Both the position numbers and the translations under genes were made by a program. This document shows, one piece after another, positions 3,277-30,630 of a DNA stretch of 32,000 nucleotides. The DNA comes from Candidatus Saccharimonadota bacterium (lineage in GTDB: Bacteria; Patescibacteriota; Gracilibacteria; BD1-5; UBA2023), in contig JAXLZO010000001.1 of the NCBI GenBank assembly GCA_046350815.1, positions 960,001 through 992,000 on the forward strand, given 5' to 3'. Positions within the stretch are counted from its first letter, which is position 1. Each line of letters opens with the position of its first letter. The notes below the pieces were generated by a model. That model did no database searches. It saw only the letters and a list, made by a program, of their open reading frames with translations, and was not told the origin of the DNA.

Positions 3277-4221
3277 CTACAAGGTTGCTTGTCAAATCGA
3301 ATCACTCTTTTGCTCAAGAATTTTCTCAAGACGATAGAGACCAAATGAAATGCCAAAAAAGAGAATGATTCAAAGAAGAAGAAAAAAGAAACTATTTTCC
3401 GATTCCAAGAAAATATTCGATAGTGTGTGAAAAACAATTGCGCAAAGGAATCAAAGAACGAGACGTGGATGAAAAAAGTAGAGTTTTTTCGGTATATCAA
3501 AGAAGAACCCCAGAGCAAGAAACATACTCACCATATGAATACCAAGAGAGAAAAATGTTCGAACAAACAAAAGATTGCCTACCTGAACAAGGGAAGAATT
3601 TTGACTATAAGTAATGAGTGCATAAAAGATATTCTCACAAAAAGCAAAACCAAGTGCGATAATAATACCCCCAAGAACTATTCAAACAACACTATCTCAG
3701 CCAATAATCCTTGCAAAGATTACCTTATTTGATTCTTCTGAGAGGGCATTGAGAAAAGTTACAATGATAGATCAAAGTGCGATACTACTGATAAATATAT
3801 GGGTATTGTGTAGTATGGGAAGAAGTAGCACTACCAATACCAAGAAGAAAATACTTGTAGCTATATACGTCATCAGAGCAGAGCATCACTCACGTGATGA
3901 TCTAAAAATAGATATTGCACCAATCAGCCATCATGGAATCAAAGCAAGGATAAGAAATATAACTATATTGACAATATGATGCGATGAAATCAAAATAGTA
4001 TCAGTATTGAGGATGTTAAGGCTATTGTATATATCAGGAAGGAGCTTATGAAGAGTAATCATAAGTACAAGATACGCCATTGGAAGAAAGACACCGAACC
4101 AGAAACTTTTACGAAAAAAACCTACCCCCAATAACTTTCGAGATCGAACGATAATATACCCAGCAAAGATGAGTGGAAAAGAAATACCAAAAAAGAGGAG
4201 AAAGAGGGAAAATAACATCAT
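3277..4221 (-). CDS. PrsW-family intramembrane metalloprotease-like protein
   Basis: Polytopic membrane protein assembled through about 6 in-frame TGA codons. It carries the ordered motifs EESNK (EExxK), GFAFCEN (FxxxE) and HTLSN (HxxxN). Starts 8 nt after the murA stop; stop is TAG 3277-3279. Confidence 0.6.
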
Positions 4222-4228
4222 AGACTAT

Positions 4229-9088: not shown

Positions 9089-11032
9089 ATGTTTTCATTC
9101 AGTTGATCAATTGCAAGCAAAAAAGCCTTTACTCTCGTTGAGCTGATTGTTGTTATCACTATTCTTGCTATCCTTGCAGCAGTAGGATTCGTAATAATGA
9201 GTCACCATACATCGGTCGCACGAGATGGAAAGAGAATTTCGGAGATACAGAGTTTATCGAGTGCATCTCGTATTACAACAGCACAACTTCGGGAGCTTCC
9301 TCGTCCTATTACAGATAGTCTCGAATTAACAGTGAGTGGATCATTTATTGGGTACCAAGGATTTATGAGTACTACTTTGGTGAATCCTATTGGGTATGGA
9401 TCAGATAAAATCTATGATCCTCTTGATGGAATTCCCTATACCTATCGGGTCAACAAAAATTATGATCAAGCACAGTTCATGGCATACCTTGAGAACCCAA
9501 GATTTGAGAGGAGTATTGAAATTGCCCTGCAATCTCTTCCATCTCTAGTATCTGAAGTTTCTGCTCTTGATACAAGTAGTATTGATTTTTCCAAGAAATA
9601 CCCATACGCTATTGGTGATAGGCTTTGAATATTCATAGATAAAAATACTCGTACCCCTCTTCAGTCAGGAATAACAGGTACGGAAAGTAGAGATATCTCT
9701 TTAAGTGATAGTGGAAGTATTAATATAATCGTTGGAACAAATGGAGATGATAGTTATATATCTACCAATATATCAAATTCTGTTCTTACTTCACTCGTAG
9801 ATGGAAGCTTTGAGAATGATGCATTGATGGCTATGAATACAAATACCGGAAGTAATTCTGGCAGTAGCTCATCAATAAGTCATATACTTACTATGGGAGA
9901 GTATAGTATTATGGGGAATACCTACTATGGATACATAGGACCTCTGACTATAAGTGCATATGCAACTTTATGAGTGAATATTGTCACTGTTACTCCTGGA
10001 TCACTCATAGATGATACTGTTGATGGGTATGTGATTGATACGATTATTTTGGATAGTAATTATAGTTCACCCATTACTATTCTTGCTGGTAGTACGAATA
10101 TGCCATCGAGTGTAACATTTGAGACTCCGTATGCAAATATCTCATGCACTCCGCAGTCAAGCTTTTCAGATATCACTCCGTATAGTTGTAATGGATCAAC
10201 CACTTCAACTGATTTTTATGTGGGATCGCAGCATGATTTAGAGATAACACTTCCTACACCCCCTCCACCAGAGATTACTTGTACAAATCCTGGAAATGTT
10301 ACAGATGCAAGTTATTTCACCTTTAATTCCTCTACACAAACTATTACAGGGTATGATTGAGCGAATGGCCCAAAAAGTATAGTAATTCCGTGTAATATCT
10401 GATGATTAAATGTCAAACATATTGGTAATAGTGCATTCCGAGAATACGCCCTCACATCAATAGAAATTCCAAGTACAGCTATAACTATAGGACATTACGC
10501 ATTTTACGGCAATCAAATTACTTCTGTTACTATTCCTAATTGAGTAACTACCATTAATCCAAATTCATTTCAAACGAATGCAATTGCCTCAGTTACTATT
10601 CCAGAGAGTGTCACTTATATTGGAAGTGCTGCATTTGCACAAAATCAACTCACTTCTGTAACTATCCCAGATAGCGTAACTGATCTTGCAGATTTTGCTT
10701 TCAACAATAATCAAATCACCTCTGTTACAATCCCAGCAGGTATAACGCAACTAAGTGGGTGGGTCTTTTCACAAAATCAAATAGCTTCCATAACTATACC
10801 AAATAACATAATCCATATTTCTAACGGAGCATTTGCTTACAATCAACTCACATCTATTACTCTCCCAAATAGCATCGAATCCATTGGACCATTAGCATTT
10901 ATTTGACAAACATCATCCTTATGAAATGGTACTGTTTATGGACCGGCATCTGGGCCCGTAAAAATTGCATATGGAGTAAATAATTATTATTTTGACAATG
11001 ATAAACTTCCAAACTACGTTGATCTTCCTTAA
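9089..11032 (+). CDS. type IV pilin-like protein with C-terminal BspA-type leucine-rich repeat domain
   Basis: N-terminus [34 protein letters not shown] is a class III prepilin signal with Glu at +5. Pieces 9197..9628 and 9974..10360 and the sequence out to 11032 are one frame joined by TGA codons. The C-terminus has about 8 repeats of 22 aa (IPxSVTxIGxxAFxxNQLTSVT). Stop TAA 11030-11032. Confidence 0.8.
10466..10927 (+). repeat. 66-bp periodic coding repeats (LRR units)
   Basis: Successive ATTCCA/CTCCCA (IP/LP) repeat starts are spaced exactly 66 nt apart from 10466 to 10862. Confidence 0.7.
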
Positions 11033-11046
11033 TCATATTATGTATC

Positions 11047-11086
11047 AAAAAATAGACCTTCTGCGAAGAAGGTCTATTTTTATTTT
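11047..11086. terminator. bidirectional intrinsic terminator
   Basis: AAAAAATAGACCTTCT-GCGA-AGAAGGTCTATTTTTATTTT lies between the convergent pilin-LRR gene and lysS. Confidence 0.7.
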
Positions 11087-13107
11087 ATCAATGGAAACTG
11101 TGAGGTTAAGCTTTCCACCTGTTCCTTGTCACCAAAAACCAGTATTCCAAGATGCTCGATCTGATCGTAGGATTTTAGAAGAGTTTGGGACTCTACTTTT
11201 TTGTCATTCGATGTTTCTAACATCTCACGAGTAAATTCAGATATATCAAGATTGAGAGATTTTGCCTCTTGTATAAGGGACTTGAGATGAGCATCACCAC
11301 CTGCTGATCGAACCATGATCGCATGTTGAATGTTGAGATGGATTTTCTCTCCATCTTCGGTTTGGATATGATTTTTATAAAAGAGCTCACTTCCCTTTCG
11401 AGCACCAAATGCAGATGAGAGATGTCCTACTGCATTGAGCTTTTGCCAAGATTCAAGATTAGCTCATTCATTCAAGATGATCGTTGCAACGAGGAGTTTT
11501 TGTTTCTTGTCACTCTTCTGAGTCTCACCAAGTTCTCTTGGGCGCATCATTGGGAAGAGAGTAACATCTCGAAGATTATTTTGTTGCGTAAGGAAAGCAA
11601 TAAATCTGTCCACACCCATTCCCCAACCACTAATTGGCGGCATGCCGTATTCCATAGCACGTACGAATTCTGCATCACCGGTCATTGCTTCTTCATCCCC
11701 TTCTGCATTTGCCTGCTCTTGCTCGATAAAACGCTCTGCTTGATCAATAGGATCTACTAGCTCACTGTAAGAATTGATAAGCTCCCAACCATTGATAACC
11801 ACCTGAAACGCATCAGCATGATGAGATCGCTCATCATTACGTCGAGCAAATGGTTTGAGTTGGATGGGATAATTGTAGAGAAAGGTTGGATGAATAATCT
11901 TCGGTCGAGATTGTTTTTTGTAGAGATAGTCAATAAGAGTAGTAAGTCACATCTCATCCATACCATCAATTTCAATACCCTTGGCCTTGATATCACTACG
12001 AAGCTTCTCTACATCTGTGTATTCTCCCACATCAATTCATGTATCTTTTTTCACCATTTCAATGTAGTCAATTCTTGCCCATGGAGTCGTAAAATCTACA
12101 TCAACGAGTTCTCCTTGCTTGTTGAGAATCTGACGTTTTCGGTCAAGTCAAAGAGTATCAAAAATATAATCAAACAACTCTTCAGTAAATCGGATATTAT
12201 CCTCGAATGTCCAATAAGAGACATTGTGCTCAAGATGAGTATGTTCAGGAAGATGAGATGGATCTTGACCTTCATTACGAAATGCCTTTCCAAGCTCAAA
12301 AATCCTCTCCATTCCTGCAATATTCATCAACTTAAGAGGGATCTCATGTGATATGCGAAGAAATACATCGAGATCCATGGAATGGTTATGAGTAACATAT
12401 GGTCGTGATGCTGCACCGGTAGCAGCATTGGTGAGCACTTGTCCCTCGATCTCACGAAAGTTATTTTTCCAATAAAACTCACGAATTGCTTTGATTACAT
12501 CCGATCGAAGATGAAATCGCTTCATGGCATCTGCATCAGTAATCAGATCAAGATGTCTCTCTCGGTACTTTGATTCTTCATCAGCGAGTCCATGAAATTT
12601 CTCCGGCAATGGGCGAAGTGCTTTTCAGAGAAATTGGAACTCTGAAACGTAGAGAGTCAGCTCTCATTTATGAGTTCGAAACATCTCACCTCGTACTCAG
12701 ACAAAATCACCAAGATCAAGACATTTTTCAAAGATCTTAAACGCAGTAATTTCCTCTCAATTTTCCATGAGAGATTCTTGCGTTCCATTATCCGTTATGA
12801 TTCTACATCCATTCTTGGATATCATGCATTGAAGATGACTACTTTCATCTTGGAGATGAAAGAAGAGGATCTTGCCAAAACTTCGAGAGAGAACAATACG
12901 ACCAGCCGTACTGACGAGTTCTTTTGGAGATACTATAACCTCTTCAATATCTCGAAATATTGATTCATCATACGAAATATGAGCAAGTTGTTCTGTTTTA
13001 GGGAAAGTACCTGGATACGTGGAGATTCAGAGATTTTTGAGACGTTCTAATTTCGCATAACGATCTCGGAGAATCTGACTAGAAGGAAGATCATGGATGA
13101 AAGACAT
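11080..13107 (-). CDS. lysS: lysine--tRNA ligase (class II) with fused C-terminal DUF2000-like domain
   Basis: OB-fold N-terminus, then class II core (FRNEGQDPSHLPEHTHLE, GWELINSYSELVDP, GWGMGVDR). The frame continues through TGA 11464-11466 into about 127 more codons ending TAA 11080-11082. Confidence 0.85.
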
Positions 13108-13115
13108 AAGTGTAT

Positions 13116-14570
13116 TTATTCGTGAATATGAGATGAAACATGATTCTTTTTGAGAAAAAGATATCAGTTAACTATAGTATAAAAAAGAAGTCCAGAGAGA
13201 AGAATCCAATCAAGAAATACAAAGAAATAAACTATACTATAATATGCAAATGGAAACTGATCCAGTTTCGTTTTTGGATGCAGAGTTCCAACACGTTGAT
13301 GATCGATAATCGGACTTATTTGCATAAACAATTCTTTATTGACACTTTCTTTTTGTGGTTCATACTTCTGAAAAAGCTCAAGAACTTTTGGGTGTAATTC
13401 TCGATCAAAGGAAGTACCACTAAAGGCATCAGCTATAAGGTATGATCCAAGAATATCTTGATCCGTTATTTGATCTTGGGATCCAGATTGAGTATCGTTA
13501 ACAGATCATTGGTGGGAGTCTCGTAGCTCCTGACTTATGATACTATAAGAATGATAGGATATGGAATTATTTGACAGAAAATCCAAACATGAAGTAAGAA
13601 GTACTAATCCAATCCAAAAAGGAATGATAATGAGAAATACTTTTTTTCTCTGACCGAGAGAGAGATCATAGCTTCTTTGAAATACACCGAACCAAGTGGA
13701 TAGTGGTTTCTCGATATTACGAGCAAACAAAACCATCGCCCATATATAACTCAGAAAGAGAGAAAGGAGAAGATATGATAGTCATAATATTATCACAGTA
13801 GAAGGAATCTCACCAAGATTGATAAGAAATAATTGATTATTGATGACAATATTAACGAGTGCAATATCCGAAAAACCAAGAGCAGCAATCAGAAATGATA
13901 GTAAAAGGAGTGAAACATAGCTGAAGTATACCATCCACAGAGTACGTTTTGAATACCTCATGATATGAAAAGCAAAGCTATACCATATACCCATAAGCAT
14001 CATAGCGCCCACGATAGCCAATAGAGCTGACAAAAAATCAAGAGACTCTCCGGAAATACCAAGAACAACAAGAGATGTTGAGAATATAGCAAGAACCGTA
14101 TATGCTGCTATTCCTAGGATACTCACCACGATAAATCGTCACAATGCCTTATGGAGCGTCCAATCAGTCAAATACTTGCGACAAACAAATATATGTCTCT
14201 GCTTTTGTGCATAAGAGAGGCATGCTCGAACGAGTAAAAAACTCGAAAAAATAAAGAGATAAAGCGAGACGATTCAAAGAAATACGATAAAGAGCGCATA
14301 GAATGAAGCAGCAATTGGATGACGAGATACAAACTCAATAATTCATCCGATAGAACCACCAGTAGAGCCCGTCAACCAAATGATAAGAAGAATGTTAATA
14401 GTGAAAACGAATACTAAAGGTACCATCCAAATAGCTAAAATACGCAATCTTGTAATCGTCCAAGAAAGAAAAAACCGACGAAATAAATGGAAGAAGGATT
14501 GTAGCACCACTCCATGTTCGCTGAAAGTATGCTGTACAAATTGGAAGAATCGAGAGTTCATATGATTCAT
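13116..14570 (-). CDS. hypothetical polytopic membrane protein
   Basis: Pieces 14343..14588, 13782..14129 and 13506..13736 and a tail to 13116 share one frame joined by TGA. There are many TM segments. The first ATG is at 14570 (TTG at 14588 is possible). Stop TAA 13116-13118, 8 nt before the lysS start. Confidence 0.55.
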
Positions 14571-14597
14571 GGAAAAGGAGGAAAACAAGGAGAAAAT

Positions 14598-15164
14598 TTA
14601 TTCAATGGGTAATCAATGGTTCAAATCAAACCATCATACTATTTTTACATAATATTCTGATAATCATGAGGAAAAAGGGAGATTTCCCTTCGCGGACGAG
14701 CAACGATTATAATCTCATCGGTAGACATCAGCTAAATGATCAATATTTCCAGAAGAATCTACTATTTGGCGTGATATTTCTATATATCTTTCGTTGGATC
14801 CAGATGCGCTTGTGGCAAGAGTACTATTAATCTTCATAAGACCATGATGTTCTCAAAGAAGATCATTGAGTGTTACAATCGTTGAGTGATGCGTTCATTT
14901 GAGAAAGTTATCCAATTGTTGTGCTCATACTATGTTTGCGATATTGGTATATGAAATATTTTCAATCGTATTCATCAAGAGTGCTGCTCACTCGAGCTCA
15001 TCATGATATCATTTTATGAGGGCATTATATGATGCAACTTGGGATGAACAAGCAACATAGACCGACTGGCCATACCAACCAACTATGAGAATAAGAACGA
15101 CCAGGAGAGATGATATCCAGAGGAGAGCTTTGCTTATGCCGAGAGAATATCCATCAATATACAT
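14598..15164 (-). CDS. LemA-like protein (weak)
   Basis: 188 codons with 7 in-frame TGA. One N-terminal TM (LLWISSLLVVLILIVGW), then a helical region with YNALIKGYHDELEGA and C-terminal DYNRCSSAKGNLPFSSG, which is reminiscent of LemA. Confidence 0.4.
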
Positions 15165-15181
15165 ATATTTTCGTGAGAAAG

Positions 15182-17830
15182 TTATTTTGTTTTTTTCAGC
15201 AATTCTTCGAGTTTTTGTAGCTGCTCAAGTGCTTCACGTTTTTTATTTTGCTCTGATCGTACAAGATTTTCTGGAGCATTTTTTACAAAACTTTCGTTAA
15301 GAAGCTTAGTATCAATACGACGAAGATAATCCTTTTTATCTTCGATTTCTTTTTGAATACGCTCAACTTCACCAGCGACCGTTATAGCAGTATGACCTTC
15401 AACATTGACGAATATATCAATCTCCTTAACAACGCCGTAGATCCAATACTGATCAGCCTCCATATCACTACGATATTCCAGTGATGCACTTTTTGAAAGA
15501 CCCAAAACGATAGCCTTATTGCGATCGAGAATATCTCTGTATTTTTTTGGTGCACAAATAATCAAAGGGAGAGTGGACGATGGTTTAATTTGTTTATCTG
15601 ATCGTATAGAGCGGATCGCCTTGATCACACTATGAACAACTACTAGATCACTCTCATCAATTTTAAGACGTTCTATGATCACCTCAGGGAATTCCGAAAG
15701 CATGAGATATCACTCACTCGAGATATGAGACCAGAGCTCTTCGGTCACCATCGGAACATATGGATGCAGAAGTTTGAGAAGTGTCTTGATCGCATAGGAG
15801 AGTACTCTCTCACCACTATGATTTCCATCTTTCGTGAGTTTGTATTCTTCGAGATAGATATCAGCAAATTCATCTCGAACAAATGTTATGAGACTTCCGA
15901 TCGTATCAGATACCATCATATCTTCGAATGATTTTCGACTCTCACCGATGAGCGTATTGAGCTTTGAGAGGAGTGCTCGCTCATTCGTTGCTAATTCATC
16001 CTTATGTTCTTGGACATATACCACATCATCAGAGTACGATGTGGCACTCATACCGATCTGCCCATGAACAAATCGCACAATATTCCAGAGTTTATTGAGA
16101 AAAAGCGAATGATTCTCTACGAGCTTGATCGAGAAGTTCATATTATTCCCTGGTGTATTCCCCGAGAGGAGTGCTAAACGTAGAGCATCAGCAGAATACT
16201 CTTGGATTATTGTAATTGGATCAATACCATTTCACTTTGATTTACTCATCTTTTGCCCGTGTTCATCGAGTACGAGTCCATGAAAATAAATTTGTTTGAA
16301 CGGAGTCTGTCCAGTGAGTTCATAACCCATCAGCAACATTCGAATCACCCAAAAGAAGATAATATCATATCCTGTCTCGAGGACTTGAGCTGGATAGAAC
16401 TTCTTAAAAAGCTCACCTTCATTCTCGAGCGTCCAATCCAGCACTCACATAGGCCAAAGACCCGATGAGAACCATGTATCGAGAACATCTTCATCACGAA
16501 CAATTTTTCGATCTGGGTATTTGTCCTGAATCGTCTTGACATCTTGCGTGACACCGAGGAGCTCCCCAGTCTCACTGTCATAGTAGGCAGGAATCTGATG
16601 TCACCACCAGAGTTGACGAGAAATACACCAATCATGGAGATTATAGATCCAATCTTCAAATGTTTTATTAAATCGTTTTGGCACGATCTCAAACTCCTTC
16701 TTCTTATACCCGTGGATAACTTTCTTTGCCATCACACTCGCTTTCACAAACCACTGTGTCGTGACAACTGTCTCAATACGAGCGCCAGTCCTCTCAGAAT
16801 ACGCAACACGTTGTTTGTGAGGTTCAATCTTGATCAGATTTCCTTTTGCCTTCAGGAGTTCTACAATATTCTCACGAGCTGTGAGAACATCCTGACCTGC
16901 AAATATTCCAGAACCCTTGGTCATCACACCTTTCTTATCGATCACGGACATATCCAGTCTGAGTCCATGACGTTTACCACATTCAAAATCAGCGGGATCA
17001 TGCGCAGGAGTAATCTTGACAACACCTGTCCCAAATTCACGATCGACCATCTCATCACCAATAATCGGGATCTCTTTGTTAAGAATTGGGAGAATCACCT
17101 TCTTGCCGATGAGTTTCTTGAATCGTCTATCCTTTGGATGTACCGCGACTGCTTGGTCAGCAAGGAGTGTCTCTGGGCGAGTCGTCGCGACGATAAATTC
17201 ATTGTCCGAGCCAGCAACAAAATACGCAATATAGTACATATTTCCCATCTCTTCTCGGTATTCTACTTCTTCATCTGATACAACGGATTCAAGAGTTGGG
17301 TCATAATTCACCATATATTCACCACGATAGATGAGTCCTCGGTTGTAGAGTTCCACGAAAACTGATTCGACTAATTCATTCATCTGAGGCTCAAGAGTAA
17401 ATTTCTCATGATCCCACGAGAGAGATGCTCCCATCTGACGAATTTGCTTCTGTATCGTTCCAGCAGATTGTTCCTTCCACTTGTATGCCTCTTCGAGAAA
17501 TGCAGCCCGCCCCATCTGTTGGCGGTTCTTTCCTTCTTTGGCAAGCTTCTTCTCGACTACTACTTGTGTTGAGATACCAGCGTGATCAGTACCAGGGATC
17601 CAAAGCGTCTCATCGCCAATCATTCGATGGTATCGTGCAAATACATCCTCAATCGCACACATAAAAGAATGTCCAAGGTGTAGAACTCAGGTTACATTCG
17701 GTGGTGGAAGAGGTATAGAGTAGGTTTTCCCGGTTTTCCCAGGCTTCGGAGTAAAACATCCGTTCGCTTCCCAATCAGCATAAATACGAGATTCAAAATC
17801 TTTTGGAGAGTACTGTTTCGGAAAATCCAT
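15182..17830 (-). CDS. valS: valine--tRNA ligase
   Basis: Five ORF-track pieces share one frame. Motifs: PPPNVT-G(TGA 17687-17689)-VLHLGH (HIGH), SRQLWW-G(TGA 16601-16603)-HQIP, KMSKSK-G(TGA 16232-16234)-NGIDP, and a C-terminal coiled coil. 882 codons; stop TAA 15182-15184. Confidence 0.93.
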
Positions 17831-17920: not shown

Positions 17921-17970
17921 CAATAAAGATATGCTAACTTATGAGCTAATTCAATGATTTATATATTTCT

Positions 17971-18339
17971 ATGATTTTACATAAAGCCAATGAGATCATA
18001 ACATTAACAATGGTTATACTATCCTACATCGCTGGAAATTATTACTTATCTGATGACTTTTCAAAGGAATATAACTTTATTATATGGGCTATATTTGCTA
18101 TAACCTATCCTTTTGTTCTTGTTAAGATGATATATACATCATGAGGTGAAAGATTTATTTATCTACAGATTTTTCTTGCTATGTGATGGCCAACCCTAAT
18201 GCTAATTTGAGGTCGTAACGATAATTATCTACTACTAGCGTATCTCATGTTTATTCCACTTATTGAAATATTTGCACTGATTATACTTTCATTAAACTAC
18301 TTCTTCTCCAGCAAAAGAAGAGCTACTGGTTCAAAATAG
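17971..18339 (+). CDS. small hypothetical membrane protein (122 aa)
   Basis: ATG 17971 to TAG 18337-18339 with 3 in-frame TGA. Hydrophobic throughout. Preceded by repeat copy 1. Confidence 0.45.
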
Positions 18340-18360
18340 AAACATTCTTGCCTTTTCTTA

Positions 18361-18450
18361 ACAAGAAAGAAAAATATGATGAAGCGATTGTGTGAAAAAA
18401 GAGAAATTTGAGAAGAGGAAAGCAAGTTGAATGATAAATATTTGATAATT
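18361..18450 (+). repeat. 90-bp direct repeat, copy 2
   Basis: See copy 1; it lies in the same position relative to the downstream gene. Confidence 0.85.
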
Positions 18451-18496
18451 TCTAAAAAATAGAGTAGACTAGTAAAGAATTACTCATTTTCTTTTT

Positions 18497-19042
18497 ATGA
18501 CACTTGCAATCATTAGTCAATTTTATGATAAGTTTCTATCGCTTAAAAATGAACCGAGAATAAATCAAACAACTTTTTTTCTCAGAATTCTGACTGTATT
18601 TTTTCCATTATATATTGCCTCATTTTTGTTCTGGGGTTTTATGCTTTATGATCTTTCTCCTGTTATATACTTCTGATTAACTGTAGTAACAACTCAACCA
18701 TTAGCCTTCATTCAAATAATAAAAAGATCACACGATTCAATACTCAATTTTATTTTAATATATTTTTGTTTTTTGCATCAAGTAAGCATCTCTTTTATAG
18801 GAATATGGATGATTTATACTACCTCTGGTGATTCATTTGCTGATGCACTGTTTCTCTGAATAATATATCCAATTAGTCAGCTAATGATCTATAGTATAGT
18901 TACTATCATACCAAGTGAAAAGAAAAGTAACAAATATGGACCTTATAAAAAATCAAACAAATGGGTAATATTATGAATAGTTACTTCTTTCATATCTATA
19001 GGTATAGGTATGTGAATTTATTTATATTTAACAAATTTATAG
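18497..19042 (+). CDS. hypothetical membrane protein (181 aa)
   Basis: ATG 18497 to TAG 19040-19042 with 4 in-frame TGA. Multiple TM segments. Preceded by repeat copy 2. Confidence 0.45.
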
Positions 19043-24290: not shown

Positions 24291-25059
24291 GGCTCTAGAC
24301 AAGAAGAATCATCTTCTTACACTAGTTCCATATGATCAAATACAGTAAAATCAGCTCTGAGAAAATACGAGAAATTTTGAAGCTATTTTTAGGAGACTTT
24401 ACTGCCACTCAAACATCAGAACTTCTCGAAATATCTCGTAACACTATTAACAGGTACTATGCTATATTTCGAGAAGAAATTGTGAGAATATCTATTGAAG
24501 AGTCATCAAAGTTTTGAAAAGAATTCTGAGAATTTGAAATTGATGAGAGTTATTTCGGTGTAAGACGAGTCAGAGGAAAACAATGAAGATGAGCGGCTGG
24601 AAAAACACCACAGTGTTTGGACTTCAGAAAAGAAACTGAAATGTCTCTGTAAGTATTGTTCCAGATTGTAGTAGAGACTCATTAATACCTATAATATACG
24701 AGGAAAAGTTCTGGAATGATCCACGGTCAACTCTGATGGTTGGACAAGTTATGATGGGCTTATACTCAATGGATACGAACATTATAAAGTATTTCATTCA
24801 CACAATGCACCACACAGGCATACACTTCGTTAAGTTTGCGAGATGAAAAAGTCATGTAAACGGTATAGAGGCATTTTGGAGTTTTGCAAAACGAAGAATG
24901 ATCAAATTAAACTGAATCCGAGCAGATAAATTTCATCTTCATTTGAAAGAATGCGAGTTTCGGTATAATTATCGCAATAAGAAAGAAGAAGCCTTACGGC
25001 TCCTTCTTACGAAGATTAGCGAAACGCTAAATTATTCAAATGTTTGCTTGTCTAGAGTC
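24291..25059 (+). mobile_element. IS1595-family insertion sequence (decayed)
   Basis: Terminal inverted repeats GGCTCTAGACAAG (24291-24303) and CTTGTCTAGAGTC (25047-25059) match at 12/13 positions. They enclose an ISXO2-like transposase reading frame. Confidence 0.65.
24332..25035 (+). pseudogene. IS1595/ISXO2-like DDE transposase, at least 3 frameshifts
   Basis: N-terminal HTH, then EIDESYFGVRRVRGKQ-G-R-G-AAGKTP. The frame slips near 24611 (VFGLQKRNGNVSVSIVPD), near 24693 (IRGKVLEGSTVNSDGWTSYDGLILNGYEHYKVFHS) and near 24810-24830 (HVNGIEAFWSFAKRR...LHLKECEFRYN). Confidence 0.7.
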
Positions 25060-25086
25060 TCGAAAATTATCTTTTGTCATATTTCT

Positions 25087-26088
25087 GTGACTCATGCATC
25101 CCACTATGATGATCGTCGATCTCACCAGCGTAAGCGAGGAGAGTCGAGATTGTCCTCTCAAAAACATAGTATCACTTTTCTCTCAAGGGACTCACAGCAA
25201 GCATTTTGGATAGTCGCCCGGGTCATCCAGCGTCCAGATCGTGAGGTACTTGTTTTGCTTTCTCAAGGCTCAACTAACACACTCAAAATCGAATCAATTA
25301 TACGTTGACATGTGATCTGAGATCATATCTGTGTTCGTGATGGAACATATATAGGGGTATATGAGCAATCGCATACACTCTGTAGGATGAAAGGAGATAG
25401 CGACCGATATTCACTCGGTGTGAGGCGAGAGCAAACGATCGCTACCAATATCGATACGATCGTTATTGTTGCTTCTGTCTCGCAGCCACACTTTCAGCCA
25501 TGATTTCTCGATAGATATTTGCTCCTCTCTGAGTACTGTCAGATCCCAGCAGTCATTGTCCTGACCAAATCTGATCTTGCGCTGATACCACATGATCTCC
25601 TTGCTCCCTATCGGGATATACTCAAACTCCCAATCTTCATCACGAGCAGTGATGATCCAGATTCACTCTCGTCACTTCGTTCGTATTTGTCTGATAAGGT
25701 TTCGGTATTTGTCGGAAAAAGTGGAGTCGGAAAATCCACTCTGACCAATTGTCTCCTTGGTCGTGAGGTTGCTACTGAGGGTGAGGTATCTCGGATCGAT
25801 CAGCAATGACGACATACAACGACTGGCTCAAGTCTGTATTCACTACCAGATGGTGGATATATCATAGATACTCCCGGTATCCGCTCGCTCGATTTTCTTG
25901 AGCTAAAGCATTCAGAGATACGATTGTATATGTCTGATATTGCCAAGATTGGACTATCATGTCACTATCGTAGCTGTCTCCATCAAGGTGAAGATGGATG
26001 CGCTATACAAGATGCTATAAAAACTTGATTACTCTCAAAAGCTCGATATGAGAGCTATATTCGCCTCTTGAACGAAGCAAAAAAATAA
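25087..26088 (+). CDS. rsgA: ribosome small-subunit biogenesis GTPase RsgA
   Basis: OB-fold region, NIDTIVIVAS, LTKSDL, P-loop GKSGVGKSTL, QQ-G(TGA 25807-25809)-RHTTT, DTPGIR and zinc knuckle CHYRSCLHQGEDGCA. Stop TAA 26086-26088. The start is uncertain: GTG 25087 is the first start-like codon after the IS right end. Confidence 0.8.
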
Positions 26089-26118
26089 CCCTCTATGGTA
26101 TTGGGGGTTAGGCTTCTT

Positions 26119-26138
26119 CTTAGAAGATTTTATAAATA
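26119..26138 (+). repeat. 20-bp direct repeat, copy 1 (IS-end-like, TAGAAGATTTTA core)
   Basis: CTTAGAAGATTTTATAAATA versus TCTAGAAGATTTTAGAAATA at 26756-26775, 17/20 identical. The two copies bracket a very AT-rich segment with no convincing ORF. Confidence 0.4.
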
Positions 26139-26755
26139 ATATTAAATCTTCTTATTGTATTAATGTGGCATAAGCCTCTTTTTATGATTGATTTTAAGTA
26201 CTTTTCTGAGTTTTTTTGAGCGAATAAATTATAGTTAAAATTAAAAAATAAATCAAAATAACAGGAAAGAACAAAAATCCATATATAAATAACGGTGGAA
26301 CCATCCCTTCTCATAGGTATACATTATTTCCTGAAACAATGTATAGAAATATATATAAAATGGTTCACAATAAAAACGGAAGGAGTCCTAGATATGTATT
26401 ACTCATTTCAATTTTTCCATAAATGTCTCGTCTTCGTAAGATAATGTATTTATTATATCTTCTTCAAAAGATATATAAGAATAAAAATAGACTTATTATA
26501 TACGATATGACTTGCTGTGAATTAAAAAATATATGTAAAAAGTTTTTTATAATAATTCATATTATATATGTTATTGTAACACTTATAATCAAAGTTTCAA
26601 TTGATCTCCAGAAAAATTCTTTTCAGTTAACTTTTTCATCTGATGGGATATCTCCAAAAATCCATTTTGAAAATTTACTATTCATATAAGTGAAGTTAAT
26701 TGTAAGTACGGATTACTAGTATTCTTTCTTAGAAATGGTTTCCCTGACTCTTGTG

Positions 26756-26775
26756 TCTAGAAGATTTTAGAAATA
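26756..26775 (+). repeat. 20-bp direct repeat, copy 2
   Basis: See copy 1. It contains the same TCTAGA core as the IS1595 inverted repeats. Confidence 0.4.
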
Positions 26776-26831
26776 CCTAAGATTTTCTAGGCTTTTTTAT
26801 AAAAAGCTTTAATCATTTTAAGAAGTTCTTG

Positions 26832-26984
26832 TTACAGTTCAATATTTGTTTTCGTATAGCGCCATTCACACTCTTTAAGATGCAAATGAAAGTTTACTCT
26901 CACTCAGTTAAACTTACTCAACCTTCTCTGTGTATAGGTCATCAACATGGACTTCATTACATTTGTCAATCCGCTATACCCATA
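26832..26984 (-). pseudogene. IS1595-like transposase C-terminal relic
   Basis: The minus strand reads ...TYTQRRLSKFN-G(TGA)-VRVNFHLHLKECEWRYTKTNIEL*. This is homologous to SFAKRRMIKLN-G-IRADKFHLHLKECEFRYN of the 24.3-kb IS. The N-terminal two-thirds are absent. Confidence 0.55.
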
Positions 26985-27106
26985 TAGCAATGTATTTTGA
27001 TATGATTATCTCGTGTTTTGTTGGCTCATTATTCTGATTTGTCTTTGATTGTATGTGTGCAATGGATCAGATGGGTGGGGTGTAGCTCATGCGGTTGCGG
27101 TAAATG

Positions 27107-27856
27107 CTAGATGTGTATCATTTTCTGGAGTGCTTCAAATTGTTTTATCTGGCCATCAAGACGAATGCATAACTCTTGCTGTAAGTGCACATGATGCAAT
27201 CATCTTGCCTGATCCTTGGCTCTTTCGAGTACTGACACTTGCTCTTGTATAGTAGTGGTAAGGGTGTGCTTTAATGCTGATAGGTAGTCAATAATATGCT
27301 TGTTACTTTCTCAAAATAGTAACCACATTTGTTCGTATTGCTTTTGATTGAGTTTGCTTCGTAAAATTTTTGCTACATAAGTAAGTCGTTTTTGGAGTGT
27401 GTAAATTTTCTGCATTTCTTTACTTACTGTTTTGATTTTTTCAAAGCTTTGCGCACTATCCAGGCTGACCCTATTGCCCTCTGTTTGGTGAAATTGTATA
27501 ATAGCATCCAGACTCCGTACGACGTACCGGTTATATATATTTATTAAAGGGTTGCTAACACATATATAGATTACTACCCAACTAACTGGTATTAAACTGA
27601 ACATCCCTCATATAAAAACCAAAGATTGCACTAGTGGATGCAGCTCGGGGTGATTGTCTACATATGTGGCACATGCTCAAAAAATCAGACCAACTAGAAG
27701 CATTATTATGACAGTCAAGATTTTGCTTTTTGCTTTATTATTTTCCATATTAATCCTGTGTAGATTGGATTGAAGAAGTCTGTATCCTTCTAAGATATTT
27801 TCTGGAGTATCACTTTCTCATGTATGTGTGACTTCTGATGGGATTACTTGTGTCAT
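27107..27856 (-). CDS. 2TM + coiled-coil protein, paralogue A
   Basis: ATG 27856. ORF-track piece 27311..27604 is extended on both sides through TGA. Two TM helices (ILTVIIMLLVGLIFGACATY, FIGGMFSLIPVSWVVIYICV), then a long helical region. C-terminal tail is LQQELCIRLDGQIKQFEALQKMIHI; stop TAG 27107-27109. Confidence 0.55.
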
Positions 27857-27890
27857 ATAAAATTTTGATATTACTTATCTTTTGCACTCA

Positions 27891-28544
27891 TTAGTATGCT
27901 TGTATTTTTTCTTGCAGCTGCTCAAATTGTATTATCTGCTCGTGGAGCCTGAGCTGCTGCATATGAAGCACGCCGACAGCGTCCTCTCTCTCACCTAGCT
28001 CTGCGATATTTTGGGAGAGGGCAGAAGCGAGTATATCTTTTTGTCAGTCTATATTTTTTGAGAGTTGTGATTTGAGCTCATGACCGAATTCGATCAAAAA
28101 ATTGAGTTCTATTATGAGCTTTTTGATTGTTTTTTGATAGCTTTCTTCGGTGAGAGTAAAAAACAAGACATTTTTTACTCTACTAAAATACCATATATTT
28201 TTCTGTATTTGGTAGAGGCAATCAAGGATTTCATCGGTATTCCGAGTATCTTTTGACTGCTCAAATAGAGAGAGGCTTGTATCCATGCTCTTAAATAAAA
28301 GAGTCATTCATTGGGTTGTTACCACGACAACAATAGTAAAAATAATTGCCATTCATCCTGTAAAGATCATATAATTTTCTATATCTTTTGAGGTATCAAT
28401 CCCAAACAATAGCAAAATGAAGCACATGATAGCAAAAAATGGAAGCAATAAAGCTAGGGTTGGCACTATACCCATGATACCTGACCACTGCATATCTTCC
28501 ATGAAGCTTATTATTTTTCGCTGTTGAGTTATATCTTCCTCCAT
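27891..28544 (-). CDS. 2TM + coiled-coil protein, paralogue B
   Basis: Pieces 28353..28544 and 28044..28307 and a tail are joined by TGA. Two TM helices, then a helical region. Tail is LHMQQLRLHEQIIQFEQLQEKIQAY; stop TAA 27891-27893. Confidence 0.55.
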
Positions 28545-28547
28545 AGA

Positions 28548-28646
28548 CTATATAGTTATCTGCTCTATCCAGCGAGTGTAGATACTCATATCGACCATTT
28601 TGAGAGATGAGGAAGTTTCTTGTATAGTTTTTCTGAGGTTATCCAT
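28548..28646 (-). pseudogene. orphan duplicate of the last 32 codons of the AAA+ ATPase gene
   Basis: MDNLRKTIQETSSSLKMVDMSIYTRWIEQITI* compared with the ATPase C-terminus ...MDNLRKTIQETSSSLKMVDMSIYTRWIEQIKL*. It begins exactly at an ATG, and its TAG stop is 3 nt before the paralogue B start. Confidence 0.7.
28564..28646 (-). repeat. 83-bp perfect direct repeat, copy 1
   Basis: Identical base-for-base to 29372..29454. Flanking sequence is diverged. Confidence 0.95.
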
Positions 28647-28657
28647 TTATCTGGGGG

Positions 28658-29350
28658 TTATTTTGTAGGTGTATTGTTTTGTAGTTTTTTCTGCAGGAGT
28701 CAAAACTGCTCTATCTGTCGATCAAGGCGAGCTTGGATATCAGCGGTCAGTGAGGGTCTCTGGAGTCAGTTGACTTGCTCTCTAGCACTCTCGAGATCAT
28801 CGATCTGTATCGTGAGTTGAGAGTGGAGCTCTGACCTGAGACGAGAGATCTCTTGTATCATATAGAGTGAGCTCTCACCTAGGAGTGTGCGTAGCCGCCC
28901 AGAGACAGATTGGAGCAATCTTGACTGGGATTGCTGGTAGAGCGTTTCATGAAGCTGATAAACAAGATATATCTTGTTAGTAATTTCCATAATAACACTG
29001 TTGTTTTTATATTGCCATTCTTGATTGTTTTGTATAGCATGAAATGTTGCCATTGCGTTACATATTTGTTGTATTGGCCTGAGAGTAACATATATACAGC
29101 TTCTCCGTATAATAGCCTCAAATCAAAGCCCAGTGTAGAGTAGCATTATAGCTATTAGTATGAAGCCATTCTTGGGTACTATTTGGCTAAAAAAGTTAGC
29201 TGCATGCAAATAGTACATTGCAGGTAGTCATATACAGAGGTAGAAATATAATAAAATCCTTTTTGTACGATGCTCCGTTGCTGATCCGTATATCCGTATT
29301 GAATTACTGAGCTCTGTATATGTTTTTATTATTTCTTCATGAGTGCGCAT
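28658..29350 (-). CDS. 2TM + coiled-coil protein, paralogue C
   Basis: ATG 29350 lies 5 nt after the ATPase stop. Two TM helices (ILLYFYLCIGLPAMYYL, FILIAIMLLYTGLGFEAII). Piece 28766..29053 continues through TGA to the tail IQARLDRQIEQFGLLQKKLQNNTPTK; stop TAA 28658-28660. Confidence 0.55.
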
Positions 29351-29355
29351 AATTT

Positions 29356-30621
29356 TTATAATTTTATTTGTTCTATCCAGCGAGTGTAGATACTCATATC
29401 GACCATTTTGAGAGATGAGGAAGTTTCTTGTATAGTTTTTCTGAGGTTATCCATCGTGATCTCGTGTCCGAGGAGATTGTCTTCTGTGAGAGTCCCGGCT
29501 TGTGCCTCATCTATGAGCTCGAGGAGGTTATAGCTCGCATCCCTCGCGACCTCATCACAGATTGCTTCGATATCTGCGGATACGTACCCATCACTGAGCT
29601 GAGCTAGCTCATCATAGTCGAGAGTCTCATGTGGACGACCAGCTCGCTCGATATACATCAAAAACAGTGCCTTTCGAGCATTGGTATCTGGTGGTCCGAG
29701 GTAGATTTTTTTGTCGAGACGCCCAGATCTCAGGATCGCCGAGTCGAGATGGTCAGGACGATTGGTAGCGGCTATGACAATCAGATTTTGCACCTCTGAG
29801 AGAGCGTTGAACTCTTGGAGAAATTGAGAGAGTTCCTCAGCTTTATGGGCGTCAGATCATGTAGTACGTGATGATACGAGCGAGTCTATCTCATCGAGAA
29901 AAAGTACGATCGGCTCATCCTTTGCTGCAAGCTTTGCACCGTCAAAAAATTCCTTGATATTCTTCGTCGTTTGATGTTGATACGACGAACCAAATTCCCC
30001 CATATTTTTGGAAATAAACCCTGCTCAGAGTTCTTCCGTAAGCTTCTTGGTTATATAAGTCTTTCCTGTTCCTGGAGGACCATAGAAGAGAAGTCCTGTC
30101 GGGATCGATACCTTGAATTTCTCATAGAGCGAGAAGAGATCTTGGTAGAGCTTCGTATTTTTTTCATCCATTTTCAATGAGTCCTCCTTTTCTTCATCTG
30201 ACTTCTCCGAGCCTTGCTTCTCGATCGCACGCATACGAAAAGCAAATTGAAGTGGACGCACAAAACTCTCGGTGAGCTCCTTTTTGAGGTCATCCATGCC
30301 AGCAATTCATGCAAATCACCATGTCTGTGGATTGTCTTTCTTAAAGTGTTTCACCTCAATAGGCAAAGACGGCGTATCATCCTTTTTTTGTGATGATGAT
30401 TGTGTCGTAGTGTCGATAGGATTTTTAGGGATTTGAAGCTCTGAAAAAGTATCATGGAGATGTTTGTTCGTTTCTTTGAGAGCCTTTTCAGCGGTTGTCA
30501 TAGCTTCTTCGAGCGATTCAAGAGATGATTGTTTCAAATCTCCATTCGCTATTTTTGCAAATTCTGGAGAGCTCGTCACTGCATTGAAGAATGCATCAAA
30601 TCATGGTTGTGGAGTGGACAT
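29356..30621 (-). CDS. AAA+ ATPase (classic clade, single AAA module) with low-complexity N-terminal region
   Basis: Pieces 30316..30579, 30025..30297 and 29356..29793 share one frame joined by TGA. Motifs: QTW-G-FA-G-IAGMDDLKKEL, Walker A GPPGTGKT, Walker B VLFLDEID, and second region of homology IAATNRPDHLDSAILRSGRLD. ATG 30621; stop TAA 29356-29358. Confidence 0.85.
29372..29454 (-). repeat. 83-bp perfect direct repeat, copy 2 (3' end of the ATPase gene)
   Basis: See copy 1; the two copies are spaced 808 bp apart. Confidence 0.95.
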
Positions 30622-30630
30622 AGTTGGTAT

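Follow-up and report, generated by a model that had tools for sequence, protein, structure and literature searches.

The class of modular pilins was defined in a survey that also showed PilB of Streptococcus sanguinis to be a pilus-displayed adhesin, a role shared by PilC of the same species (Raynaud et al. 2021, PMC8179133). In Dataset S1 of that work, the architecture IPR012902-IPR026906 is the seventh most frequent, with 18 proteins and six more carrying two LRR_5 regions, IPR026906 being the region of BspA-type leucine-rich repeats (LRR) (PMC11266394). The element considered here, a gene at positions 9089-11032 on the forward strand of a 32,000-nucleotide stretch of contig JAXLZO010000001.1 (positions 960,001 to 992,000, referred to as a whole as the window), encodes N_methyl and LRR_5 on one polypeptide and is, in that sense, a modular pilin. 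It resembles S. sanguinis PilB (pilin plus vWA) and PilC (pilin plus lectin) in its prepilin motif, its small pilin module, its linker and its bulky binding module that is not specific to pili. This domain architecture, a prepilin head joined to a BspA-type LRR, is near certain, and we consider it fairly probable that the protein is a modular minor type IV pilin, displayed on the pilus and with an adhesive role, in a candidate phyla radiation (CPR) bacterium that uses genetic code 25.

The protein departs from the modular pilins of Raynaud et al. in that its pilin head and its effector are separated by another two domains, uncharacterised and together about 250 residues long, in that nine of its glycines are encoded by TGA, and in that its carrier part recurs throughout a large family of paralogues whose effectors have been swapped. 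The interpretation offered in the first-pass annotation of this DNA holds in its testable parts, but the novelty of the fusion was overestimated, given that the pairing of a pilin with a BspA-type LRR already appears in the dataset mentioned above; the present analysis contributes the description of a conserved carrier, of effectors swapped on it and of a divergence between strains at one fixed locus. Our literature search found no paper on pilin-LRR fusions in Gracilibacteria specifically. The nearest counterparts in that lineage are the proteins named GspG or PulG, which share its genetic code and are multicopy and large: according to the report on a closed Gracilibacterium genome, 15 'GspG' averaging 528 residues are encoded there together with PilB, PilC, PilT and PilD, with no PilQ secretin (Sieber et al. 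2019, PMC6851277), which agrees with the family of 400-1,078 residues found here. The passages found in that report do not describe C-terminal modules or LRR fusions, and the pilin-LRR protein, for its part, stays below the cut-off of the GspG equivalog.

The C-terminal 250 residues are alike, in repeat type and fold, to the surface proteins of the BspA/TpLRR type (BspA from Tannerella, TpLRR from Treponema, 6mlx, and 4fs7 and 4gt6 from gut Bacteroides/Firmicutes), although the matched proteins have no pilin N-terminus in the aligned regions. Proteins of this type are exported and anchored by means of Sec signals, lipoprotein signals, the type IX secretion system or cell-wall domains. A further likeness is found in the non-pilin tip adhesins PilY1/PilC and in CofB from enterotoxigenic Escherichia coli, where a variable effector is likewise brought to the tip of the pilus by a carrier (PMC8179133); nonetheless, PilY1, which docks via a beta-propeller, is no pilin, and CofB has beta-repeat and beta-sandwich domains and no LRR.

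The gene and its parts, in window coordinates, are the following:

9089-11032, forward strand: complete coding sequence, 647 sense codons and a TAA stop, with nine in-frame TGA codons read as glycine
9089-9127, forward strand: class III (prepilin-type) leader MFSFSGSIASKKA, residues 1-13, above the cut-offs of N_methyl and TIGR02532
9128-9508, forward strand: pilin module, residues 14-140, with Phe+1, Glu+5, a hydrophobic alpha-1N, an alpha-1 helix to about residue 65 and a beta-sheet head
9509-9874, forward strand: domain 2, residues 141-262, beta-rich, of no known family, with a low-complexity Ser/Gly/Asn end
9875-10252, forward strand: domain 3, residues 263-388, of no known family, present only in some paralogues
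10253-10273, forward strand: proline linker PTPPPPE, residues 389-395
10274-10384, forward strand: LRR N-cap, residues 396-432, with the motif SYFTF..T.TITGY and Cys398, modelled with high confidence from about residue 400
10385-10912, forward strand: eight 22-residue units of the BspA type (LRR_5), residues 433-608
10913-11029, forward strand: C-cap, residues 609-647, ending in KLPNYVDLP and conserved in LRR_5-bearing paralogues

Domain architecture of the pilin-LRR protein

The class III signal and the hydrophobic pilin helix reported by the first-pass annotation are both borne out by curated models, with 26.9 bits for Pfam N_methyl (cut-off 21.2) and 26.6 bits for TIGR02532 (cut-off 16.3). 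The leader is basic, ends in KKA and is predicted to be cut after Ala13, between KKA and FTLVE, and the features expected of a prepilin are present, since the leader is not only basic but short, the residue at -1 is small, and Phe at +1 and Glu at +5 are accompanied by around 20 hydrophobic residues. A profile built from the N-terminal 245 residues matched 860 proteins, and in these relatives Glu+5 and the complete alpha-1 assembly helix are strictly conserved. In a PDB profile search, the helix aligns with those of MshA, PilE1 and geopilin, pilins of solved structure. For residues 7-179, the AlphaFold model (from 133 sequences), which was built from the TGA-free segment of the window at 9107-9625, has a predicted local distance difference test (pLDDT) of 78 and a predicted template modelling score of 0.68, and it consists of a 50-residue helix (residues 16-65) followed by four to five strands; the beta-sheet head contains the motif DPxDGxPYTY. 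As for more specific assignments, neither the GspG equivalog TIGR01710 (17.6 bits against a cut-off of 88.85, over residues 13-61 only) nor the ComGC equivalog NF040999 (15.4 bits against 75) was reached.

The C-terminus is an LRR solenoid of the BspA type. Pfam LRR_5 (PF13306, BspA type) scores 171.4 bits there, against a cut-off of 27.7, and the top sequence matches in the PDB are the cell-surface LRR proteins 4gt6, 4h09, 4fs7 and TpLRR. The full-length AlphaFold model of the orthologue P0001, made from the source translation with Trp at the TGA positions, has a pLDDT above 90 over residues ~395-643, and a Foldseek search with its solenoid retrieved 4gt6, 4fs7 and TpLRR (6mlx) at probability 1.0. 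The structure prediction that had been recommended as a check has thus given a confident solenoid in P0001 and a helix with a beta head in the model of residues 7-179. The more specific models for HupY/LrrG (NF047961, 88.9 bits against 1250) and internalin A (NF033189, 31.1 bits against 1600) were not reached, and both match over the repeats only.

The eight units follow the consensus [IL][TA]S[IV]T[IL]P..[VI]..[IL]...[AV]F..NQ in an exact register of 22 residues, or 66 bp, and it is only this period that is exact. Therefore, the count and the period of the "about 8 exact 22-aa units" described at first stand, and the exactness of their sequence does not, since the mean identity between units is 37% at the amino-acid level and 50% at the nucleotide level. 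With such values, and with no DNA repeat found in the LRR region by Tandem Repeats Finder, the repeats are old and do not represent recent duplications.

Between both ends, the conservation of the pilin module among paralogues extends to domain 2, and in domain 3 the cysteines C353 and C367 are conserved in the homologues that have this domain, which suggests that they may form a disulfide and that the domain would be extracytoplasmic. The Pfam search gave no match in domains 2 and 3, both of them beta-rich. Ser, Thr, Asn and Gly add up to 43% of residues 141-392, so that the Ser/Thr/Asn-rich region with a PTPPPPE linker noted in the first-pass annotation is there, its length being ~250 residues rather than ~400 unless the pilin head is included.

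Genetic code and reading frame

The in-frame TGA codons of the gene lie at 9104, 9626, 9971, 10358, 10400, 10403, 10541, 10904 and 10922 (that is, nine and not eight, as previously counted), and the single 647-codon frame described before was recovered, closed by TAA and with no internal TAA or TAG. In the two remaining frames of 9089-11032 there are 31-34 TAA/TAG codons, and a 655-codon frame devoid of them would be expected by chance, from the base composition, with a probability of about 5e-15. In comparison with the orthologous gene in L001, a syntenic locus from Logan SRR22388166 (another syntenic contig is ENA ERZ724508), the protein is 91% identical, with 0.053 nonsynonymous substitutions per site (dN), 0.326 synonymous ones (dS) and a dN/dS of 0.16; the gene is under purifying selection.

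L001 and the window have in common the gene order SecF, PrsW-like, MurA, HrcA-like, FtsK, pilin-LRR, LysRS (lysyl-tRNA synthetase) and ValRS (valyl-tRNA synthetase), with a DNA identity of 81-84%. When eleven shared genes were aligned by codon, the partners of TGA were TGA in 49 cases, GGN in 41, TGG in one and other codons in 20; GGN thus makes up 41/62 of the non-TGA partners, and TGG 1/62. Within the pilin-LRR gene, 9/9 TGA codons are kept in L001, and two extra TGA codons of L001 pair with GGA here. Universally conserved glycines are also encoded by TGA in MurA (PGGCALG) and ValRS (PPPNVTG), and each of the long genes of the window, including the housekeeping ones, has several in-frame TGA codons. 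Because of the interchange of TGA with GGN and the TGA codons at conserved glycines of MurA and ValRS, it is near certain that TGA encodes glycine (code 25) throughout the window. No tRNA gene was found in the window. The nearest named homologues belong to Candidatus Gracilibacteria, which agrees with the CPR lineage proposed in the first reading of the sequence.

What would speak for the opposite possibility raised in that first reading, namely that TGA terminates translation and the region is a set of small separate open reading frames (ORFs) or a pseudogene, is that the standard bacterial code breaks 9089-11032 into ORFs of no more than 143 residues and that several database entries are precisely such fragments (e.g., P0132, of 143 residues and 99% identical). 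However, termination at TGA is excluded by the MurA and ValRS glycines, the pairing with GGN and the dN/dS over the full-length frame, and also by the Pfam LRR_5 match, which spans the TGA at residue 485; moreover, the housekeeping genes of the window would be interrupted in the same manner, and the domain order of the protein is conserved across the TGA positions. A gene broken up by its TGA codons is, therefore, extremely improbable.

Pilus machinery and proposed assembly into a filament

Several observations weigh against the protein being a pilus subunit. Its -1 residue is Ala and not the canonical Gly, yet Ala is the norm in the family (among 106 sequences, 77 have Ala there, 17 have Gly and 12 have a TGA codon). 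Alanine at -1 is also found in streptococcal ComGC. The sequence profile matches solved pilins over the helix only, and Foldseek of the modelled head against the PDB returned no pilin match with E <1, for which reason the fold of the head, although consistent with that of a pilin, is unproven; past the helix, it is the predicted secondary-structure pattern, and nothing else, that is consistent with a pilin fold. In addition, domains 2 and 3 were modelled at a pLDDT below 50 (in the P0001 model), the 32-kb window contains neither a pilus machinery gene nor a second pilin, and neither a motif search nor phmmer with E. coli GspO as query brought up a homologue of prepilin peptidases in the 835 kb of related loci.

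The first-pass annotation had singled out a genome devoid of such machinery as an argument against its proposal. At the level of the lineage, PilB-, PilT- and PilC-like genes do occur near family members: a full-length PilB/GspE-like ATPase (T2SSE, 404 bits) adjoins one of them in L036, L006 and L016 encode PilT-like ATPases, L016 and L027 encode PilC/GspF-like proteins, and each of these genes is within 10 kb of a family member. A separate observation concerns L006 (855-5492), from a close relative, where the tandem pair of pilin-LRR genes is directly preceded upstream by genes for the PilT-like ATPase, for a protein that binds cyclic nucleotides and for a coupling protein of the VirD4/TraD type (TrwB_AAD_bind).

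These data have to be confronted with a different explanation, according to which the product is a surface protein whose class III signal serves for export or membrane anchoring only, or which forms part of a short pseudopilus like that of the type II secretion system (T2SS), so that the LRR would not be borne by an extended, retractile pilus. The isolated position of the gene among housekeeping genes in a window with no pil genes would fit this explanation, as would the unconfirmed fold of the head, the load of ~500 residues, which would seem bulky for packing in a filament, and the fact that large multicopy relatives are annotated as GspG pseudopilins in PMC6851277. Nonetheless, a mere anchor would have no need for Glu+5 and a full alpha-1 helix, which are strictly conserved in the 860 relatives, PilB-, PilT- and PilC-like genes are neighbours of family members, and the pili of S. 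sanguinis are known to incorporate bulky modular pilins (PMC8179133). We therefore regard an anchor or pseudopilus protein as possible, although rather unlikely.

If the protein is, as we favour, a minor pilin, a prepilin peptidase would cut it after Ala13 and its alpha-1 helix would then dock it into a type IV filament made by PilB, PilC and PilT. Since a C-terminal load of ~500 residues is bulky, the protein would be placed at the tip of the filament or be sparsely incorporated along it as a minor pilin. The surface of the LRR could in this way bind a structure on the envelope of a host or prey cell, after which retraction of the pilus would draw both cells together.

Paralogues, strain divergence and possible host recognition

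A full-length search found, in addition to the orthologue P0001, numerous proteins of Gracilibacteria that begin with the same N-terminal part, named at NCBI, for the close relatives, either 'leucine-rich repeat protein' or 'prepilin-type N-terminal cleavage/methylation domain-containing protein'. The lengths in the family go from 400 to 1,078 residues, and a single 1.28-Mb contig of an NCBI Gracilibacteria metagenome-assembled genome carries at least four paralogues. When the N-terminal module alignment was run against contigs of species-representative genomes, no relative was confirmed, be it that the clade is absent there or that the tblastn confirmation failed on recoded genes. The first ~250 residues (the pilin module and domain 2) are strongly conserved across paralogues and the C-termini vary, including LRR_5, LRR_8/LRR_14, Fibrinogen_C, Laminin_G_3 and other domains, with a fibronectin-III-like stretch (judged by eye) sometimes preceding LRR_8/LRR_14. 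From these comparisons, the first ~250 residues constitute a conserved 'carrier' that is joined, in different paralogues and strains, to differing C-terminal binding modules.

The comparison of the LRR between strains, advised in the first-pass annotation, revealed a pronounced divergence. A second positional orthologue, in L004, occupies the same slot between FtsK and LysRS, and its flanking proteins are 89-95% identical to those of the window, with the exception of one unannotated membrane ORF (67%). In contrast with those flanks, the LRR is only 47% identical, and identity changes from one domain to the next: 89% in the pilin module, 57% in domain 2, 84% in domain 3, 39% in the N-cap, which has an insertion of ~80 residues in L004, and 64% in the C-cap. 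Three further loci (L003, L005 and L006) represent another location, with a tandem pair formed by a pilin-LRR_8 gene, with classical LRRs, followed by a pilin-LRR_5 gene. The first 600-750 nucleotides of the gene are 81-85% identical to the paralogues at this other location, and for the 3' half the only nucleotide match is in L001. With respect to L001 the relation to the flanks is inverted, as dS by domain ranges from 0.08 to 0.57 in the gene, against ~1.1 in the flanking MurA and FtsK. This mosaic divergence, obtained from two or three sequences, is an indication that recombination and a fast turnover of the binding module may be at work, and a rapid divergence of the LRR would tune the specificity for the partner.

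Even if the protein is a pilus subunit, its LRR might serve a purpose other than the contact with a host, such as self-aggregation, binding to abiotic or polymeric substrates, or the capture of DNA or nutrients. Type IV pili of CPR bacteria have been proposed to take up DNA (PMC8080830; PMC11452946), LRR_5 is listed with 'no clear function' in the survey of modular pilins (PMC8179133), and the strand residues of the repeats (ITSVTIP) are near-uniform between units. On the other hand, the closest solved or named LRR relatives are surface or adhesin proteins (4gt6, TpLRR, PcpA, internalins and HupY/LrrG), and a divergence of the LRR between strains next to flanks that are 89-95% identical is easier to reconcile with the recognition of a biological partner that varies than with a generic substrate. 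A non-host ligand appears, as a consequence, quite improbable.

Going one step further than an adhesive minor pilin, the carrier with its interchangeable, fast-diverging modules could represent a repertoire of pilus-displayed receptors that sets the range of hosts or prey of code-25 CPR bacteria. Recombination in the conserved 5' portion would then move modules from one paralogue or strain to another, as hinted at by the mosaic divergence described above. Such a repertoire would be functionally comparable to the receptor-binding proteins of phages or to pilin cassette variation; it is put forward here very tentatively, as an unlikely extension of the proposal.

The genetic code has also left its mark on how this family is represented in databases. 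The codon of the -1 glycine is TGA in L003 (2392), L004 (9998) and L006 (5701 and 8128), due to which standard-code gene callers drop the signal and the helix and restart at 'MSHQ...'. This probably explains the truncated entries such as P0017 and the fragments like P0132. The starts at 'MSHQSS...' (P0004 and P0017) were also considered as silent, 5'-truncated cassettes, an idea to which the simpler combination of a TGA at -1 and standard-code calling is preferred, if only tentatively for P0004, which is annotated with code 25.

Regarding the surroundings of the gene, a promoter scan gave no matches above the shuffle expectation, and the elements at its 3' side are these:

11048-11081, no strand assigned: terminator-like hairpin whose 15-bp stem has an A-run and a T-run at its flanks, 3' of the stop codon, between the gene and the convergent LysRS gene
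11080-13167, reverse strand: LysRS gene, convergent with the pilin-LRR gene

One hairpin of this kind was found against 0.8 expected in shuffled sequences, which makes it weak evidence by itself. Some other genes of the window are also more diverged than their neighbours with respect to L001, namely the gene of a PrsW-like membrane protein (3277-4224, reverse strand; 50%) and the unannotated membrane ORFs at 13116-14597 and 14598-15242 (both on the reverse strand; 64-65%), while the other syntenic genes are at 88-93% protein identity; envelope proteins besides the pilin evolve fast as well. Elsewhere in the window, one frame without TAA or TAG at 24451-26088 (forward strand) contains both DDE_Tnp_IS1595 (an ISXO2-like transposase; 27.4 bits over residues 7-129) and a complete RsgA GTPase (160 bits), and is probably a transposase remnant located directly upstream of rsgA and not a true fusion. 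At 27107-29446 (reverse strand), three tandem genes (27107-27874, 27891-28547 and 28658-29446) with predicted membrane segments and no Pfam family share a C-terminal motif (RLDGQIKQFEALQKMI, RLHEQIIQFEQLQEKI and RLDRQIEQFGLLQKKL), and are found beside an AAA ATPase gene (29356-30630, reverse strand), resembling a small array of paralogues next to an AAA+ ATPase. Lastly, the GC content falls to 28%, versus ~38% elsewhere, at 18001-19000 and 26001-27000, where small, very hydrophobic ORFs are located (17950-18339, 18476-19042 and 26194-26712).

Given that the architecture was already catalogued, the value of the pilin-LRR gene is that of a well-characterised example and a testable lead, and not that of a new type of system. 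For the family as a whole, it implies that standard-code gene calling fragments its members and that databases hold many split or N-terminally truncated entries. The Gracilibacteria and their relatives are barely cultivated, or not at all, and depend on other cells, and we know of no host-recognition molecule in them. The gene described here is a concrete candidate for that role, as it combines a head for filament assembly, a protein-binding solenoid and a binding part that diverges very fast between strains, and its LRR domain, once expressed, could serve as a bait for the identification of hosts.

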